Positions 1,574 to 60,256 are shown, counted from the stretch's first letter. The stretch: 60,256 bases of DNA from an uncultured Gammaproteobacteria bacterium (GCA_938075585.1 CALJHG010000006.1:1-60256), one strand, 5' to 3'. Program-made: numbers and translations. Notes: generated from the letters alone by a model not told the origin.

Positions 1574-1915
1574 TTAAACAGAAAATGAAGAGCCGCATCC
1601 ACATGTAGTGGTAGCATTCGGATTTCGTATTACGAACTGCGAACCTTCTAAGCCCTCACTGTAATCAATTTCTGCACCTGACAGGTACTGCACGCTCATC
1701 GGGTCGACAAGCAATTTAACACCGCCATTGGAAACTATGGTGTCGCCTTCGCCTTCCTCTTGGTCAAACGTAAACCCATATTGGAAACCTGAGCACCCTC
1801 CCCCAGATATAAACACCCTCAGCATGAGGCTATCATCTCCCTCCTCATTTATGAGTTCTTTTACCTTATGAGCCGCCGAATCGGTAAATACTAGTGTTTC
1901 TACAGCAATGTCCAT
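1574..1915 (-). CDS. erpA: iron-sulfur cluster insertion protein ErpA
   Basis: [11 protein letters not shown] and C-terminal TTCGCGSSF; convergent with anmK. Confidence 0.95.
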
Positions 1916-1977
1916 TGTTATTCTCTATCAGTAGTTTCTGTTTAATGTGTCTATTGTTGTCTCAAATTCTATTAAAA

Positions 1978-2400
1978 TCAATCACTTTCTTGAGGAACGC
2001 CTCCGTAATCTAAAGAAAGCGCAGGCCTTTCTTCGTCAGTGATCCGAACTAATTTCCCATTGACCTCGGCACCAATAGCCATTTCCATCAACCCATAATA
2101 CACGTCTCCCTCAACTCGGGCGCTAGATGCAAGCGCTATTTGTTCTGACGCACGAACGTCTCCTTTAACTAATCCGCTAAGTAAAACGCACTCGACTTGT
2201 ACTTCACCTTCGATAGTTCCACGCTCGCTTACAGTCAAGCATGAATACCCGCCATCGTCAGAACAAACTGTACCTTTAATAGTACCATCGACATGCATTC
2301 CACCACTAAATTTCACATCACCAGTCAGGACACTGTTCCCTCCAACTAGGGAATCTATTTTACCCGGCTTTCGCTTTTTATTTTTGCGCCACATTTTCAT
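1978..2400 (-). CDS. bactofilin (polymer-forming cytoskeletal protein)
   Basis: Beta-helix repeats GDVKFSGGMHVDGTIKG...IEGEV...VKGDV...VEGDV; upstream of erpA. Confidence 0.9.
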   Translation of the reverse strand: MKMWRKNKKRKPGKIDSLVGGNSVLTGDVKFSGGMHVDGTIKGTVCSDDGGYSCLTVSERGTIEGEVQVECVLLSGLVKGDVRASEQIALASSARVEGDVYYGLMEMAIGAEVNGKLVRITDEERPALSLDYGGVPQESD

Positions 2401-2566
2401 TCCTTATACACTAGCAACCATGGATAGCTAAAGAATTTAAAGTTTACCTTCTTTTCGGTTAGTGTTCATCTTTATCCTATAAATTATTTGGGCGAAGTAA
2501 GGTATTATCTTTTACAGCAATACACATCTTGCCATACAAATGAAAATATTAATGAAGCGTTAAGCT

Positions 2567-3007
2567 ATGTACCTATTGTTAAAGTCCTTACATTTAATCT
2601 TTGTAGTTACATGGTTCGCAGGCTTATTTTACCTTCCGCGCTTATATGTGTATCACTCTGCCTCACTAGACAAGACTGGCATCCAACGATTCGAGTTGAT
2701 GGAAAAAAAATTATACTACGGCATCATGTGGCCCAGTATGCTCCTAACGTTATGCACCGGAACTGGTCTTATCGTTATTAACGGCATGCCTTGGGCTTCG
2801 CAATCGTCTTGGCTGCAAATAAAAATACTTATAGTCATTTCTTTGTGCATCTATCAGTTATATTTAGGGTGGCTCCGAAAGGTTTTTGTTCTAAAAGCAA
2901 ACAAGCATGGACATATTTTCTACCGGTGGCTAAATGAGGCGCCGGTCATCGCCCTAATTGCGATAATATTTCTAGCAGTATTTAAGCCGTCATTGTGGGG
3001 TACGTGA
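2567..3007 (+). CDS. hemJ: protoporphyrinogen IX oxidase HemJ
   Basis: KSLHLIFVVTWFAGLFYLPRLYVYH, MEKKL, RWLNEAP, LAVFKP. Confidence 0.93.
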   Translation: MYLLLKSLHLIFVVTWFAGLFYLPRLYVYHSASLDKTGIQRFELMEKKLYYGIMWPSMLLTLCTGTGLIVINGMPWASQSSWLQIKILIVISLCIYQLYLGWLRKVFVLKANKHGHIFYRWLNEAPVIALIAIIFLAVFKPSLWGT

Positions 3008-3018
3008 GAGACGCGCAT

Positions 3019-3801
3019 ATGGTTCACAACGAATCAAAACTCGGAAACGTACTAATTGTATCAGCACACGATCCTAGCGGCGCTGGCCTGCAAGCAGATA
3101 TAGAAACATGTCAGGCGCTCAACTGTTACCCCGCTACTATTGTGACTGGATTAACGACCCAAAATACAAGAAAATTATCTAGTATTAAAAATGTCAGTGC
3201 CCATGACTTCAAGGCACAACTGGAAATGTTGCTCGAAGAATTCGAGCCCGGAGTTTGCAAAGTTGGGCTAATAAATTCAACCGACTTGATGGCCACTTTG
3301 GGTAACGTAATTAGAGAAAAACTGCCAGGTATCCCTTTAGTGATAGACCCTATACTTGGCAGTGGGTCTGGGGCGAAACTGTTTACCGAAGAAATAGTTG
3401 AAGGGTATCTCCAGCATCTAACCCCTCTAACCGAAATCATGACGCCTAATCTGGCCGAATTGCGTCTTTTAAGTAACAGTAAAGATGTCGTGTCTGGCGT
3501 CGATTATTTACTAGGTAAGGGATGTAAAAATGTATTAGTGACTGACACAAATCCAGAGAAAGAAATTATCACTAACCACTTATTCTCAAAAGTTTACGAA
3601 CAGGAGACTTATGAAATGGAGCGCTACCGAGGAGAGTATCATGGTACCGGATGTACGCTAAGCTCCGCGGTTGCCTGCCGCTTAGCAACCGGAATGGACA
3701 TCGGAAGCGCTGTACGATCTGCACAAAAATACGCTCATTCAGCAGTACAATTTGCTCATAACTTTGGATGGTGTCAAAAAATCCCCAATCGATTCTTCTA
3801 A
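3019..3801 (+). CDS. thiD: hydroxymethylpyrimidine/phosphomethylpyrimidine kinase
   Basis: DPSGAGLQADI, TPNLAE, HGTGCTLSSA. ATG at 3019 preferred over the overlapping GTG at 2995. Confidence 0.9.
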   Translation: MVHNESKLGNVLIVSAHDPSGAGLQADIETCQALNCYPATIVTGLTTQNTRKLSSIKNVSAHDFKAQLEMLLEEFEPGVCKVGLINSTDLMATLGNVIREKLPGIPLVIDPILGSGSGAKLFTEEIVEGYLQHLTPLTEIMTPNLAELRLLSNSKDVVSGVDYLLGKGCKNVLVTDTNPEKEIITNHLFSKVYEQETYEMERYRGEYHGTGCTLSSAVACRLATGMDIGSAVRSAQKYAHSAVQFAHNFGWCQKIPNRFF

Positions 3802-54797: not shown

Positions 54798-54982
54798 AAC
54801 ACGAACAAATTTAGATCTTTAACTGTGGGGACTAGTCGCGCTCTAATTTGCGCGATATAATAAAGGATCAGGTACAGTAGATTGTTAAGTGGTTAGTTTT
54901 GAACCTAAAATCTACGACAAGGCCTAACAGTAAGTCTTTCCTTAAACATATATTTTTTCATTTGAGAGACGCAAGAAAGCAT

Positions 54983-56806
54983 ATGGAATTACAAGAAAAA
55001 GCCAGTCCCCAGTCGCAATTAAAAACGCTTATAGCCAAAGGGAAGGAGCAGGGGTTCCTGACCTATCACGAGGTCAATGACCATTTACCTAGTGACATAG
55101 TTGATCCTGAGCAAATCGAAGACATAGTCAATATGATAAATGATATGGGTATTACTGTGCATGAAGTAGCACCCGACGCAGATGAGCTACTACTAAATGG
55201 CGGTACTACAGTAGACGAGGAAGCAGCAGAAGAAGCGGCTGCGGCGCTCGCATCAGTCGATAATGAATTCGGCCGAACAACTGATCCGGTGCGGATGTAC
55301 ATGCGAGAAATGGGCACAGTCGATCTACTCACCAGAGAAGGTGAAATAAAAATTGCCAAACGTATTGAAAATGGTCTAAAGCAGGCGCTATTTGCGCTGG
55401 CTGATTTTCCGGAGGTGAACGAAGTCTTCCTCGGGTACTACGAACAATATAAAATTGAAGAATGCAAAATAACCGACATAATGTCTGGTTTCATGGACTA
55501 TGACGCGGAAATTCAATCTCTTAACAAGCCCACTGAGACCGGCGAAACAGAAGAGAAAAATGATGGCGATGATGATGATGATGAAGGTAAAGCAACGCTA
55601 GACTTAGAAGATGTTGCAAATCGATTTTCTGCTTACGCGAAGTTATGCAAAAAAGCCGTGAAATCATCGAAAAATAAGGGACGAGAGCATGCCACTAGTG
55701 TAGCGTTACGAGAAGAAATGCAAGAAAAATTCGTAGAATTTAAATTAAATCCAAAACTTTTCGAGGTCTTGGCAGAAATCGTGGCGGGCGTGATTAAAGA
55801 TGTTCGAAAGGCCAAACAATCAATTTTTGATATTTGTGTAAAGCAAGCCAAAATGTCCCGAAAGGATTTCCTGACTAGTTTTAAAGACAATGAAACTAAT
55901 CTTAAATGGGTGGATGGTGTTAGTAAGCAGAAAAAACCTTTCGCTCCTATTATAAAAAAGAATAAATCTATAATTATTGATTACCAAAAAATCTTGGCCG
56001 AGTTAGAGGAGGAAAACGCCCTAACTGTAGCAGAGATGGAAGCTTTAAATCGTCAGATGTCCACTGGAGAAGCTAAAGCCCGCCGCGCAAAAAAAGAAAT
56101 GGTAGAGGCTAATCTTAGATTAGTCATCTCAATTGCCAAAAAATATACTAATAGAGGCTTGCTGTTCTTAGACCTCATTCAAGAGGGTAATATCGGGTTA
56201 ATGAAAGCAGTAGATAAATTTGAATATCGCCGTGGCTATAAATTTTCGACCTACGCAACTTGGTGGATCCGGCAAGCAATCACTCGTTCAATTGCGGATC
56301 AGGCTCGTACTATTCGAATACCGGTCCATATGATAGAAACTATCAATAAACTGAATAGAATTTCGCGACAAATATTGCAGGAACAAGGTAGGGAGCCTAC
56401 CCCTGAAGAGTTAGCCGAGAGGATGGAGATGCCGGAAGACAAAGTGCGCAAAGTGCTTAAAATTGCTAAAGAACCGATATCGATGGAAACCCCAATCGGG
56501 GACGACGAAGACTCGCACTTAGGTGACTTCATTGAAGACCAAAATATGGATGCGCCGGTCGATTCCGCTACCTTTCAAGGATTATGCAGAAACACAAGAG
56601 AGGTCCTAGAGGGTCTTACTCCGCGAGAAGCTAAAGTTTTGAGAATGCGGTTTGGTATAGATATGAATACCGACCATACGCTAGAAGAGGTCGGGAAACA
56701 GTTCGATGTTACGAGAGAGCGGATTAGACAAATCGAGGCTAAAGCACTTCGTAAGCTGAGACACCCTTCCCGCTCGGAGAGACTTCGGACATTCTTAGAT
56801 CAGTAA
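54983..56806 (+). CDS. rpoD: RNA polymerase sigma factor RpoD (sigma70)
   Basis: [54 protein letters not shown] 54983 chosen as start. Confidence 0.98.
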
Positions 56807-56826: not shown

Positions 56827-56903
<77 letters not shown>

Positions 56904-56913
56904 TCTTTCTTCC

Positions 56914-56968: not shown

Positions 56969-57010
56969 TGAGCCACATGCCCTCACTTCTGACCTACATA
57001 TGGCCTACAT
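56969..57010 (+). repeat. putative integrase arm-type direct repeats
   Basis: TGAGCCACAT (56969), TGACCTACAT (56990), TGGCCTACAT (57001). Confidence 0.6.
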
Positions 57011-57055: not shown

Positions 57056-58255
57056 ATGCACAAACTGATTACCAAGAAAGTTATAGAAACTATTCACCTT
57101 TCAGAGGGTAGAGAATTACTGCTGAGAGATACCGAACTAAAAGGATTCGGTATACGGATTAGTCCTTCAGGAAACAAGACCTTCTTTGCAGAAGGGAACT
57201 TCAATAGAAGTCGTCAAACTAAAAGACGTTCTTTGGGACGCTACCCTATTGTCCCTCTGGACACGGCGAGAGGAAAAGCTAGAGAACTCCTGTACCAGTG
57301 GTACATCGGTATGGATATAGAGAAACAGCATATGAAGACTGCTCAAGAGGCAGTAAATACCTTCACTCTGGAAGAGACTATTAATCGTTATTTTTCCTCT
57401 CGCTCGTTAAAGAGCGAAGCAGATTACAGACAGGTAACAAGGAGAGTATTCGGAGATTGGTTCGATAGACCTGTCAGGTCTCTAACCAGAGAAGATATCG
57501 AGAAACGATACTGTGACAGAGTATTTAAAAAGGGCTGTAAAGCACAGACGAATAAGGCGATGAGATATCTCAATGCCATTCTTAATTTCGCCTCAGCGGA
57601 GACGATAAACGGTACTCATCTCTTGCTTTCAAACCCTGTTCAAGTCCTCTCAGATAAGCGTTATGACCGCTCTGTGAAGCCTAAAAAAACCTTTATAGAA
57701 GCTTCTCAATTATCTGGTTGGGTAAACGCTGTTAACTCTTTGTGCACTCCTCTGGCAAGGGATTTATTGCTCCTTCAGATACAGACAGGATTAAGAGACA
57801 GTGAGGCTAAAGGACTCCTTTGGGAAGATGTAGACTTCGAAAATAGACTGTTCACCGTCAGGAATACGAAGAACGGTAGTGACCTTACTATCCCTATGTC
57901 AGAGCAGCTATATGGTCTATTGTCAGAGAGAAAGAATACTGCTACTTCGGATATCTATGTTTTTCCGAATAAGACCCAGATAGGTCCTGTGACTTCTATT
58001 CGGAAACAGAAAGATAAGGTAATAGGAGCGACAGGAATACAGTTTACTCATCACTGTTTAAGGAGAACCTTTGCATCTTTGCTTAACAAGGAATTAAGTA
58101 TCGACATACCCACGATATCTGTTCTTCTTAATCACACTCCTCAAGGAGTAACCCAGAAACATTATTTGACTTCATCACCGAAAGATTTTAGAACGGTCTA
58201 TCAACAGTTCAGTAGTATTGTTCTTAAAAACGAGGAAGTAGTCAGTGGTACTTGA
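57056..58255 (+). CDS. tyrosine recombinase/integrase with P4-like arm-binding N-terminus
   Basis: LRDTELKGFGIRISPSGNKTF, LGRYP; catalytic TGLR, TKNG, HCLRRTFAS, LLNH, KHY. Confidence 0.95.
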   Translation: MHKLITKKVIETIHLSEGRELLLRDTELKGFGIRISPSGNKTFFAEGNFNRSRQTKRRSLGRYPIVPLDTARGKARELLYQWYIGMDIEKQHMKTAQEAVNTFTLEETINRYFSSRSLKSEADYRQVTRRVFGDWFDRPVRSLTREDIEKRYCDRVFKKGCKAQTNKAMRYLNAILNFASAETINGTHLLLSNPVQVLSDKRYDRSVKPKKTFIEASQLSGWVNAVNSLCTPLARDLLLLQIQTGLRDSEAKGLLWEDVDFENRLFTVRNTKNGSDLTIPMSEQLYGLLSERKNTATSDIYVFPNKTQIGPVTSIRKQKDKVIGATGIQFTHHCLRRTFASLLNKELSIDIPTISVLLNHTPQGVTQKHYLTSSPKDFRTVYQQFSSIVLKNEEVVSGT

Positions 58256-58275: not shown

Positions 58276-59670
58276 ATGTCAAACGACTCACATAGACTAC
58301 AAGACACGTCGGTTCACTTTAGCTACCCCGAGCAATTTGATGATTTCTGCGCAGACCTATGGTCTGAATTTCTAAGCGAAGCGTTTCCTCCCGCAAAAGG
58401 AGTAGGCAGACGACCTCGGGTTTCTCGCGAGGAGCAAATGCGAGTTATTTGGATGAATCTATATTGGCAATGGCATGTTGACCCTGGGCGGATTACCAGC
58501 GTCCCCATGGATGTTCGAATATATGCCAAAGATAAACACTACCAACAACTAGGATTAACCAGAATTCTACCTGACATGATTAGACATCTTATTGATACGG
58601 GCGTGCTCACACTTGTTAAGAAAGGCTCTGAAATCTCAGGCAAAATGACTCGAGTTAAGCCATCCAAAAAGCTCAGGAATCGGTTTAAGCGTTTTGCCCC
58701 TGAAATTAAGCCTGTGCAATTAAAAGATGAGAATAAAAAGCCGATTAACTACGAAGAAACAGCGGATACCTTACGATGGGGAGGCATACTAAGGCGCTAT
58801 AACGCGCTATTAGAACGAACACACATTGATGTCGGGCACTTTACGAATACAGACCATAAAAAGTACGGCTTAAACTTATCACGACGCAAACACGTCTACA
58901 GACAATTCAATAATAGTAGCTTTTCACAATATGGGCGTATTCACGGCGCTTGGTGGCAACTCCTTCCTAGCCAGTGGAGAAAAGATATTCTTATTGATGA
59001 CTTTGAAACTGTCGAGGTAGATTTCACCGCGATGTCGACATATATCACTTACGGAATAGAAGGCGTAAAGCCCCCAATGAAAGACCCTTACAAGCTGAAA
59101 ACGCCGAACGAGTTTATAGATGGTCCCACTCAGAGAAAGTTTCTAAAAAAACTTATTAGCATCGCTTATAACACTGCGAGCGATGCCGATGCACTGTGGA
59201 CGTTTTGCGAAGAGTACAAGAAAGTGGTCACGCCTGAGTTTCTGGCATTTTTTAGAAACCACGGGGAAAGCCTCCTGGAAGCCTTCAGAGATGCACACCC
59301 AGCGATAAGTAAGTACTTATGTACTAATAAAAAACATGGCTTAACGACCATGTTTGAGGATTCACAGCTTGCTATGGCACTAATTGACCACTTTACTGAC
59401 CGCGAAGTACCAATACTGACAGTACACGACTCTTTTGTAGTCCCTGAATACGAAGCTGGGAACTTAATCACCAAAATGACGTCCCTTTTCTTCGAAAGAT
59501 TTGGATTCAAACCAGACCTTAAACAAGAAAACATCAGTATGGTTCAAGCCCAAAGACTCCTAAGAGACGACCCGTTAATCAACGCTAGTCCTCTAGACTA
59601 CTTTCGCACATCTGAACGAAGTGAAGATTACTACTCAAGAAGAGAAGAATTTATAAGTAATATAGCTTAG
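58276..59670 (+). CDS. uncharacterised stand-alone family A polymerase-like (palm/fingers) protein
   Basis: YGRIHGAWWQLLP (R221), VEVDF (D249, motif A), RKFLK (R287/K291, motif B), LTVHDSF (H384/D385, motif C); no exonuclease motifs seen. Confidence 0.65.
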   Translation: MSNDSHRLQDTSVHFSYPEQFDDFCADLWSEFLSEAFPPAKGVGRRPRVSREEQMRVIWMNLYWQWHVDPGRITSVPMDVRIYAKDKHYQQLGLTRILPDMIRHLIDTGVLTLVKKGSEISGKMTRVKPSKKLRNRFKRFAPEIKPVQLKDENKKPINYEETADTLRWGGILRRYNALLERTHIDVGHFTNTDHKKYGLNLSRRKHVYRQFNNSSFSQYGRIHGAWWQLLPSQWRKDILIDDFETVEVDFTAMSTYITYGIEGVKPPMKDPYKLKTPNEFIDGPTQRKFLKKLISIAYNTASDADALWTFCEEYKKVVTPEFLAFFRNHGESLLEAFRDAHPAISKYLCTNKKHGLTTMFEDSQLAMALIDHFTDREVPILTVHDSFVVPEYEAGNLITKMTSLFFERFGFKPDLKQENISMVQAQRLLRDDPLINASPLDYFRTSERSEDYYSRREEFISNIA

Positions 59671-59675
59671 CTATC

Positions 59676-60209
59676 GACGCGTTTAAGACGCGTCTACCTT
59701 TAATTATTAAATCTCTAAATAACGCTCTTACTAAATACTTAACCTTATTCTTCCATGTTTTACATGGAATATCTTAAGGTGATTAATTGGCTATAGGTCA
59801 GAAATCATAGAATGCTTTCTTCCCTTTTAAACTCATAAAGATTACTCCCTGTGCTGCACCATATCGCACAGGAAGTATCCTCAATTCCTAACGTGTTTTA
59901 TGTACTCATAAAAAGGTAGAAAGCTACCTTGTAGCTTTACTACCTCCACCCAATATAATCTCTTAATCTTTCAACTTCCCTTCCCTCCAATATACCCATT
60001 CATTTATTAATCTAGAGTCCACAGTCGCGACCCTTTATCATAAATATATCAGAGGAAAGTACCGCCTCAGGTACTACGTCTCTCTCAATTAGGGGTATCA
60101 GCAGCACCCTTCAGAGCGATTCTAAGCCCCTCTGTGAGGTTTTGACTATTCTTGAATAAACATCTGTAAATATTGTATTTAAATCTATTAGAGAGCCTTA
60201 CAGAGCGTT
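59676..60209. other. ORF-free cluster of inverted repeats (candidate structured RNA or single-strand origin/promoter region)
   Basis: Stems at 59676-59694, 59742-59780, 59843-59877, 59896-59913, 59914-59945, 60058-60075, 60091-60111. Confidence 0.6.
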
Positions 60210-60256
60210 TAAAATGCATACAGTAACAAAGTCTAAGATGGTAGAATAAATACTAA

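Follow-up and report, generated by a model that had tools for sequence, protein, structure and literature searches.

What does a small polymerase-like protein, encoded directly behind a tyrosine integrase, do for the genomic island that carries it? The question is raised by one end of the window, the 60,256-nucleotide (nt) stretch of DNA analysed here, which is the entire contig C6 of a 1.95-Mb draft genome (G000, 76 contigs) of an uncultured gammaproteobacterium. An open reading frame (ORF) with an ATG start at 58276–59670 (plus strand) encodes a protein of 464 amino acids (aa); its gene starts 20 nt after that of the integrase and is the first past it, in an island integrated at a tRNA-Met gene. 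The protein matches the Transposon-Virus polymerase (TV-Pol) family in predicted fold, conserved residues and context, and its role is, on balance, probably to initiate replication of the excised island and to act as its primase-polymerase.

Homologues and Predicted Fold of the 464-Residue Protein

The sequence-only reading of this stretch had taken the ORF for a polymerase-like protein, and all of the strings that it quoted are present in the translation, i.e. GR..WWQLLPSQWRKDI, VEVDF (with Asp249), QRKFLKK (with Arg287 and Lys291), SIAYN, GLTTMFEDS, TVHDSF (with His384/Asp385) and LPDMIRHLIDTGVLTLVKKG. No Pfam family matched the protein at E ≤ 1 and no NCBIfam model matched it; in PHROGs it matched a family of unknown function (phrog_4756, E 1.5e-31). 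By sequence comparison the protein is not an orphan: a 90%-clustered collection holds 40 homologues at E ≤ 0.001 (top identities 94, 85 and 52%, the remainder approximately 30%), among 50%-cluster representatives 4,235 reach E ≤ 0.001 and 81 reach E ≤ 1e-30, and a neighbouring ESM Atlas cluster (score 0.98) bears the automatic name [quoted passage not shown] With a family of this size lacking a Pfam or NCBIfam model, its genes will mostly be annotated as hypothetical.

An AlphaFold model (mean predicted local distance difference test, pLDDT, 81.7; predicted TM-score, pTM, 0.79) was obtained from a 38-row alignment comprising the window protein and 37 of the 40 homologues, the short fragments P0017, P0037 and P0038 being excluded. 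The model comprises a winged-helix-like N-terminal domain (aa 1–145; 58276–58710, plus strand) and a family-A polymerase core of about 280–320 residues (aa 143–420; 58702–59535, plus strand). Within the predicted core, the thumb region is reduced to a single long helix (163–180), hairpin strands 208–211 and 221–223, the latter with Arg221, precede the palm, and strand 243–249 ends in Asp249 of motif A. The fingers contain Asp270, the Arg287-xxx-Lys291 pair, both residues of which lie on helix 283–297, and Asn299; in motif C (His384-Asp385-Ser386), His384-Asp385 is located at the turn joining strands 381–383 and 386–390. In the model, the order of strands and helices around Asp249, His384-Asp385 and Arg287/Lys291 is the topology of a palm with fingers.

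Foldseek comparison with the PDB returned, among the matches listed, only superfamily A polymerase relatives; the best E value is modest (7.1e-4) and the TM-scores are low, as expected because the core is half the size of the PDB targets. The approximately 280-aa core aligns only with the palm, fingers and thumb of 3e2e_A. Against BFVD, the best 11 matches (E 3.7e-19 to 1.9e-13) are 400–450-aa phage proteins of the same overall build.

Conservation of the Active Site

Fifteen columns are invariant in the 38 sequences: Asn176, Arg221, Arg235, Glu247, Asp249, Asp270, Tyr272, Arg287, Lys291, Asn299, Gly355, Asp362, His384, Asp385 and Ser386. In a broader alignment of 150 sequences (the window protein with 149 cluster representatives from a list of 150, P0189 being excluded for the size limit), Arg235, Glu247, Asp249 and Tyr272 are kept throughout, Lys291 in 149, Arg221, Arg287 and Asn299 in 148 each, Asp385 in 147, Asp270 in 142 and His384 in 138. 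Given these invariant and near-universal residues, the polymerase motifs are not a product of chance. The claim that both catalytic Asp residues are retained extends to nearly all of these homologues, and the Met noted in place of the usual Gln before motif C proves to be common to the family (position 359 is Met in 93 and Gln in 53 of the 150). The broader proposal in the sequence-only reading, of an exonuclease-less palm and fingers core of Pol I/T7 type with its own, possibly winged-helix, DNA-binding domain, agrees with the fold model, the conserved motifs and the absence of a nuclease family match, the predicted domain of aa 1–145 being winged-helix-like.

Two positions seem to depart from Pol I. 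Position 254 is His in 139 of the 150 sequences and Ser in four, namely the 464-aa protein and its closest relatives; from the motif spacing, we take the position of the Pol I steric-gate Glu to be this His or Ser. On the same assumption, the motif B Tyr position is presumably occupied here by an invariant Asn.

Assignment to the TV-Pol Family

As described in the passages cited here of Iyer, Abhiman and Aravind (2008, Biol Direct 3:39; PMC2579912), TV-Pols are built on a minimal superfamily-A core that includes a thumb; an Arg is conserved in a hairpin, two Asp residues in the palm, and an Asp together with RxxxK in the fingers, and no nuclease is linked. In one subset a further globular domain is present at the N-terminus, and the gene is found in mobile elements alongside a transposase, a resolvase or an integrase of lambda type; the authors proposed that this subset both primes and copies its elements, as a primase-polymerase (PMC2579912). 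The 464-aa protein matches this subset, with its activity presumed, because its fold, conserved active site, nuclease-free build and island context fit the family definition. Thumb, palm and fingers are all present in the model; the two palm Asp residues correspond to Asp249 and Asp385, the hairpin Arg before the palm to Arg221, and the fingers residues after the first palm strand to Asp270, Arg287 and Lys291. No nuclease domain was detected with Pfam at E ≤ 1, the N-terminal part being predicted to be winged-helix-like. This extra domain is accompanied by the integrase gene 20 nt upstream, and more widely by an integrase-like ORF, detected with a hidden Markov model of two integrase clusters, in 42 of 80 rows (79 family loci and the window); in 27 of the rows it is no more than five ORFs away, and in six it immediately precedes the gene in the same orientation.

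The protein class has been in print since 2008, and this kind of enzyme is not new. The length of 464 aa lies within the 400–600-aa range given by Iyer et al., and the marine Gamma- and Alphaproteobacteria in which the family occurs here resemble the hosts that they list (PMC2579912). They predict an all-helical N-terminal domain, whereas our model has a winged helix with beta strands. The link to the family runs through features and context, no direct sequence similarity to a named member having been obtained.

In the passages cited here, the only biochemically tested TV-Pol case is CcPol-MP of SCCmec, a primase and distant relative (Bebel et al., 2020, PMC7581432; Rice, 2023, PMC10061031), with CcPol counted in the family by Iyer et al. 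(PMC2579912). CcPol extends primers, prefers dNTPs and, when joined by its partner MP, can start DNA synthesis de novo with dNTPs in a template-dependent, primer-independent manner (PMC7581432); its gene lies in an operon with a helicase, and MP-like proteins elude sequence models (PMC10061031). CcPol and the 464-aa protein share a family-A polymerase domain without proofreading, encoded on an integrative element. [quoted passage not shown] The differences from DNA polymerase I (Klenow/Taq) and the apicoplast apPOL are larger: the 464-aa protein has neither a match to DNA_pol_A (PF00476) nor 3′-5′ or 5′ nuclease domains, and its polymerase domain has approximately 280 residues compared with >400 in Pol I.

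Island Context

The integration target is the tRNA-Met gene (anticodon CAT; 56827–56903, plus strand; identified by ARAGORN, with an Rfam tRNA score of 74.5 bits). The attL core (56846–56907) consists of the 58 nt at the tRNA 3′ end and 4 further nt, and has an exact copy, attR, at C55:1415–1476 (62 of 62 positions identical by blastn). The attR copy appears to be a tRNA fragment, because ARAGORN called no tRNA gene on C55:1–2972, and the 62-nt repeat has the form of a classic attL/attR pair; no repeat of the tRNA end was found elsewhere within the window. A match to the att core on contig C56 is a tRNA-Lys gene, and C56 was rejected as a second copy of the island. The tyrosine integrase (399 aa; 57056–58255, plus strand; Pfam Phage_integrase E 1.5e-19, Arm-DNA-bind_3 E 5.6e-9) faces the island interior, towards the polymerase gene.

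Two metagenome contigs, L106 and L107, carry a 94%-identical protein, and their DNA is 94.5% identical to the window over 1,757 nt, from 9 nt before the ATG to 350 nt past the stop. Both contigs carry a different integrase; in L106 it is an unrelated-looking tyrosine integrase upstream of the shared DNA (1611–3191; 526 aa versus 399 aa in the window), whose ORF overlaps that of the polymerase by 20 nt. On a third contig, L108, host genes come next after this downstream DNA. By this comparison, the gene and the 350 nt downstream of it move as a cassette between integrase backbones. The ratio of nonsynonymous to synonymous substitution rates (dN/dS) between the window gene and its L106 relative is 0.19. 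One patch of the gene, 58417–58566, differs from the L106 copy at 35 of 150 nt, compared with 1–9 per 150 nt in the rest, and residues 71–100 of the winged-helix-like domain hold 15 of the 26 amino-acid differences; the patch could be the result of recombination or an altered binding surface.

Proposed Role and Points Against It

We consider it more likely than not that the 464-aa protein starts the replication of the excised island and serves as its primase-polymerase. The integrase would cut out the island in circular form, the N-terminal domain would bring the enzyme onto island DNA, and the core, with Asp249 and Asp385 holding two metals and Arg287 and Lys291 the incoming nucleotide, would make a primer and short DNA, which the host replisome would extend. 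One protein would combine the functions of initiator and primase-polymerase, with no helicase or SSB to go with it. ColE2 Rep and RSF1010 RepB′ are origin-specific plasmid primases with archaeo-eukaryotic-primase-type folds; they resemble the proposed role in that one element protein recognizes the origin and primes while host enzymes extend, but they do not have the family-A polymerase fold.

A number of findings weigh against this role or the family assignment beneath it. Sequence searches of the PDB (phmmer with the single protein, hmmsearch with two profiles) gave nothing relevant. Alignment by hhalign of the family alignments A1 and A5 with a PolA alignment, A4, gave probabilities of only 0.6% and 0.3%, a null link that says little since A4 comprises the polymerase domains of seven gammaproteobacterial PolA and is narrow (effective number of sequences about 2). 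Profile A1 found nothing at E ≤ 0.01 in the record of Microcystis phage Ma-LMM01, a named TV-Pol carrier. CcPol, which is without an N-terminal domain, requires MP, a small SSB of the oligonucleotide/oligosaccharide-binding (OB) fold, for priming (PMC10061031). TV-Pol titles, abstracts and passages, including those of PMC7581432 and PMC11348598, report no assay of TV-Pols that have an N-terminal domain and are linked to an integrase, and no other TV-Pol had been characterized at the time of Bebel et al. (2020; PMC7581432). The island spans C6:56846 through the contig end to C55:1476 with an assembly gap from 60256 to C55:1, such that its full gene content is not assembled; contigs from four runs were too short, and with them the gap after 60256 was not closed and the excised form not seen.

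Neighbouring genes and distant homologues add to these points. A Pfam scan of 150 of the 215 candidate ORFs within two positions of the gene matched 103 families, the 25 most frequent of which are listed (commonest: guanylate cyclase, 5; DEAD, 3; TPR_2, 3). Those 25 include no D5/DnaB/MCM-type helicase, primase or SSB, the helicase domains among them being of general type (DEAD, 3; ResIII, 2). Nor do they include a proofreading 3′-5′ or a 5′-3′ exonuclease, in keeping with the nuclease-free TV-Pol definition; restriction-enzyme families are represented (ResIII, 2; one each for R-subunit domains of type I). With respect to a PolA-SSB operon, the downstream ORFs in L106 and L108 encode DUF4224 and unknown proteins or are host genes, and in the window only 586 nt follow the gene. 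Homologues with 22–29% identity, all annotated as hypothetical, are carried by 29 large phage genomes (about 91–146 kb) with Vibrio, Aeromonas, Klebsiella, Pseudoalteromonas and Shewanella hosts; small-island replication cannot be the role of these homologues, whose phages have complete sets of replication genes. The phage and plasmid neighbourhoods are uninformative, consisting of hypothetical proteins.

An initiator would need a site, for which the hairpin-rich non-coding stretch 59671–60020, part of the mobile cassette, was considered. The 330 nt past the stop, folded as single-stranded DNA, reach −44.7 kcal/mol compared with −17.1 ± 3.2 for shuffled sequences (z −8.7) and form four hairpins (59676–59694, 59751–59769, 59848–59872 and 59914–59945); three pairs stay paired via double changes in L108. 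The stretch is a weakly supported candidate for an origin or priming site, or its hairpins may be no more than terminators. Support for an origin is weak because one hairpin also reads as a minus-strand terminator, conservation does not exceed that of the adjacent third codon positions, and distant loci lack such structure. The stretch is more conserved than third codon positions of the whole gene (10 differences in 322 nt versus 43 in 464; p 0.0007), but not more than those of the adjacent 3′ third (8 in 155; Fisher p 0.31), and for this reason we do not claim selective constraint on it. For 26 distant loci where the gene is followed by 250 nt or more of non-coding DNA, the first 200 nt (RNA energy parameters, 20 mononucleotide shuffles) did not exceed 40 control spacers in structure (median z −0.42 versus −0.73; Mann-Whitney p 0.94), and structured downstream DNA is not supported as a family-wide feature.

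Alternative Roles

Islands at tRNA genes often bear defence cargo. The 464-aa protein could correspondingly be an accessory repair or lesion-bypass polymerase, or the nucleotide-polymerizing component of an anti-phage or phage-interference function, with island replication independent of the gene. The hypothetical homologues in 29 large phages, the 38 of 80 rows without an integrase-like ORF in the stretch covered, and the lack of a recurrent replication partner among the listed neighbour families are consistent with such cargo. We nevertheless regard it as unlikely: the gene directly follows the integrase and travels with its downstream DNA between integrase backbones as replication modules do, PADLOC returned no model match for the protein at E ≤ 10, and the host already owns a polA (contig C34; Pfam DNA_pol_A E 7.7e-162).

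A bolder form of the initiator proposal, which we consider doubtful, holds that TV-Pols with an N-terminal domain are self-sufficient, site-specific primases that polymerize ribonucleotides, aimed by the winged helix at a hairpin-rich origin. It is suggested by the replacement of the presumed steric-gate Glu by His (Ser in this clade) and of the motif B Tyr by Asn, and by a motif C HDS like that of T7 RNA polymerase.

Rather improbable, in our estimate, is a function in DNA synthesis during transfer, either of the second strand after entry of single-stranded DNA, or of concatemers that a helper phage would package, in the manner of a satellite. According to passages of PMC9618062, virus particles carry concatemers of marine integrative elements that are similar in size, and the stretch was detected (at least half of sampled words) in 16 marine and estuary metagenome runs from 13 studies. 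Hairpin-rich DNA beside the gene would also suit initiation on a single strand. Conversely, no relaxase, terminase or capsid-related gene was seen in the window, in C55:1–1476 or in L106–L108, the element being incompletely assembled.

The single-subunit RNA polymerases of the T7 type have an N-terminal promoter-binding domain and a specificity loop. The motif C likeness might indicate a miniature enzyme of this kind, a DNA-dependent RNA polymerase for element genes, but this is very unlikely: the 464-aa protein is about half the size or less of the T7-like enzymes, including phage N4 RNAPII, and at this length is too small to hold those promoter-recognition modules; it matches no Pfam RNA polymerase family; and DNA polymerases score equal to or above RNA polymerases as matches. 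Host RNA polymerase could read the few genes of the elements, and the tested relative CcPol prefers dNTPs (PMC7581432). Finally, a catalytically dead polymerase fold serving as a DNA-binding regulator, or as a helper of the integrase in excision or integration, would account for the predicted winged-helix-like domain and for a gene that adjoins the integrase, possibly in one operon (compare the 20-nt overlap in L106), but is most improbable because such a protein would not need the metal- and nucleotide-binding residues kept across 150 diverse representatives.

TV-Pols show how small a functional family-A polymerase can be, and may represent a third route to starting DNA synthesis beside the DnaG-type and archaeo-eukaryotic primases. 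If the 464-aa protein does have primase activity, this would explain how very small tRNA-inserted marine islands replicate after excision, and would provide a compact enzyme of possible practical use. If it in addition polymerizes ribonucleotides, it would be the smallest RNA-synthesizing enzyme of the family-A fold, with gene and site mobile as a cassette between integrase backbones.

Distribution of the Family

Matches were found in six of 61 related genomes (G000 included), with two of the other five being substantial (E 3.5e-47, and E 4.1e-24 with two stops); the small number implies a patchy distribution. Among species-representative genomes, 155 relatives were confirmed and 80 loci kept, mostly from marine Gammaproteobacteria (Porticoccaceae, Halieaceae), Rhodobacterales, SAR116 and Pelagibacter. 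In seven of 79 loci (L028, L050, L054, L056, L058, L078, L079), two neighbouring ORFs together make up the polymerase-like frame; these are likely frameshifted or decaying copies. Many members lie on 1.3–5-kb contigs of isolate assemblies (L004, L012, L017, L023, L024, L028, L030, L031, L035, L060, L069, L077), some with names that show high coverage, which suggests multi-copy or episomal elements. A terminal overlap of 20–300 nt, as a sign of circularity, was present in none of the 21 family loci <8 kb.

Other Features of the Island

The gene preceding the tRNA is rpoD (54899–56806; Sigma70 families). Inside the left end of the island lies a 21-nt motif, CTGACCTACATATGGCCTACA (CTGACCTACATATGRCCTACA; 56989–57009, plus strand), which recurs with one change at C55:1333–1353 near attR. 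The form CTGACCTAC occurs 14 times in the 1.95-Mb genome, two of these beside the two att copies, and the motif is possibly an integrase arm site.

The contig ends in a repeat module of 150–200 nt (60056–60256) that has one further copy in the genome, also closes related elements at their far end, and may be the reason for the assembly break at 60256. Its identity is 78% to C56:6630–6779 (upstream of a 133-aa ORF), 88% to L106:8431–8512 and 73% to L108:1144–1310. In L106 a 3.5-kb block, encoding a DUF4224 protein, two unknown proteins and one small protein with weak, sub-threshold helix-turn-helix matches, separates the hairpin region from this module. Contigs of the metatranscriptome library X17 cover 59416–59883 and 60055–60216, i.e. 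the gene's 3′ end, the hairpins that follow it and the end module, leaving most of the gene uncovered; they are a mere hint of RNA from the region, with DNA carry-over possible.

The last island gene before attR encodes a Gcw_chp outer-membrane protein (C55:370–1158; E 6.4e-37). In layout, the island resembles the tycheposon-like marine cargo islands outlined in passages of Hackl et al. (bioRxiv 10.1101/2020.12.28.424599): a tyrosine integrase at a tRNA gene faces inwards, next to it lies a small (here presumed) replication module, and cargo follows, here Gcw_chp; the host in this case is a gammaproteobacterium-like genome and not Prochlorococcus.
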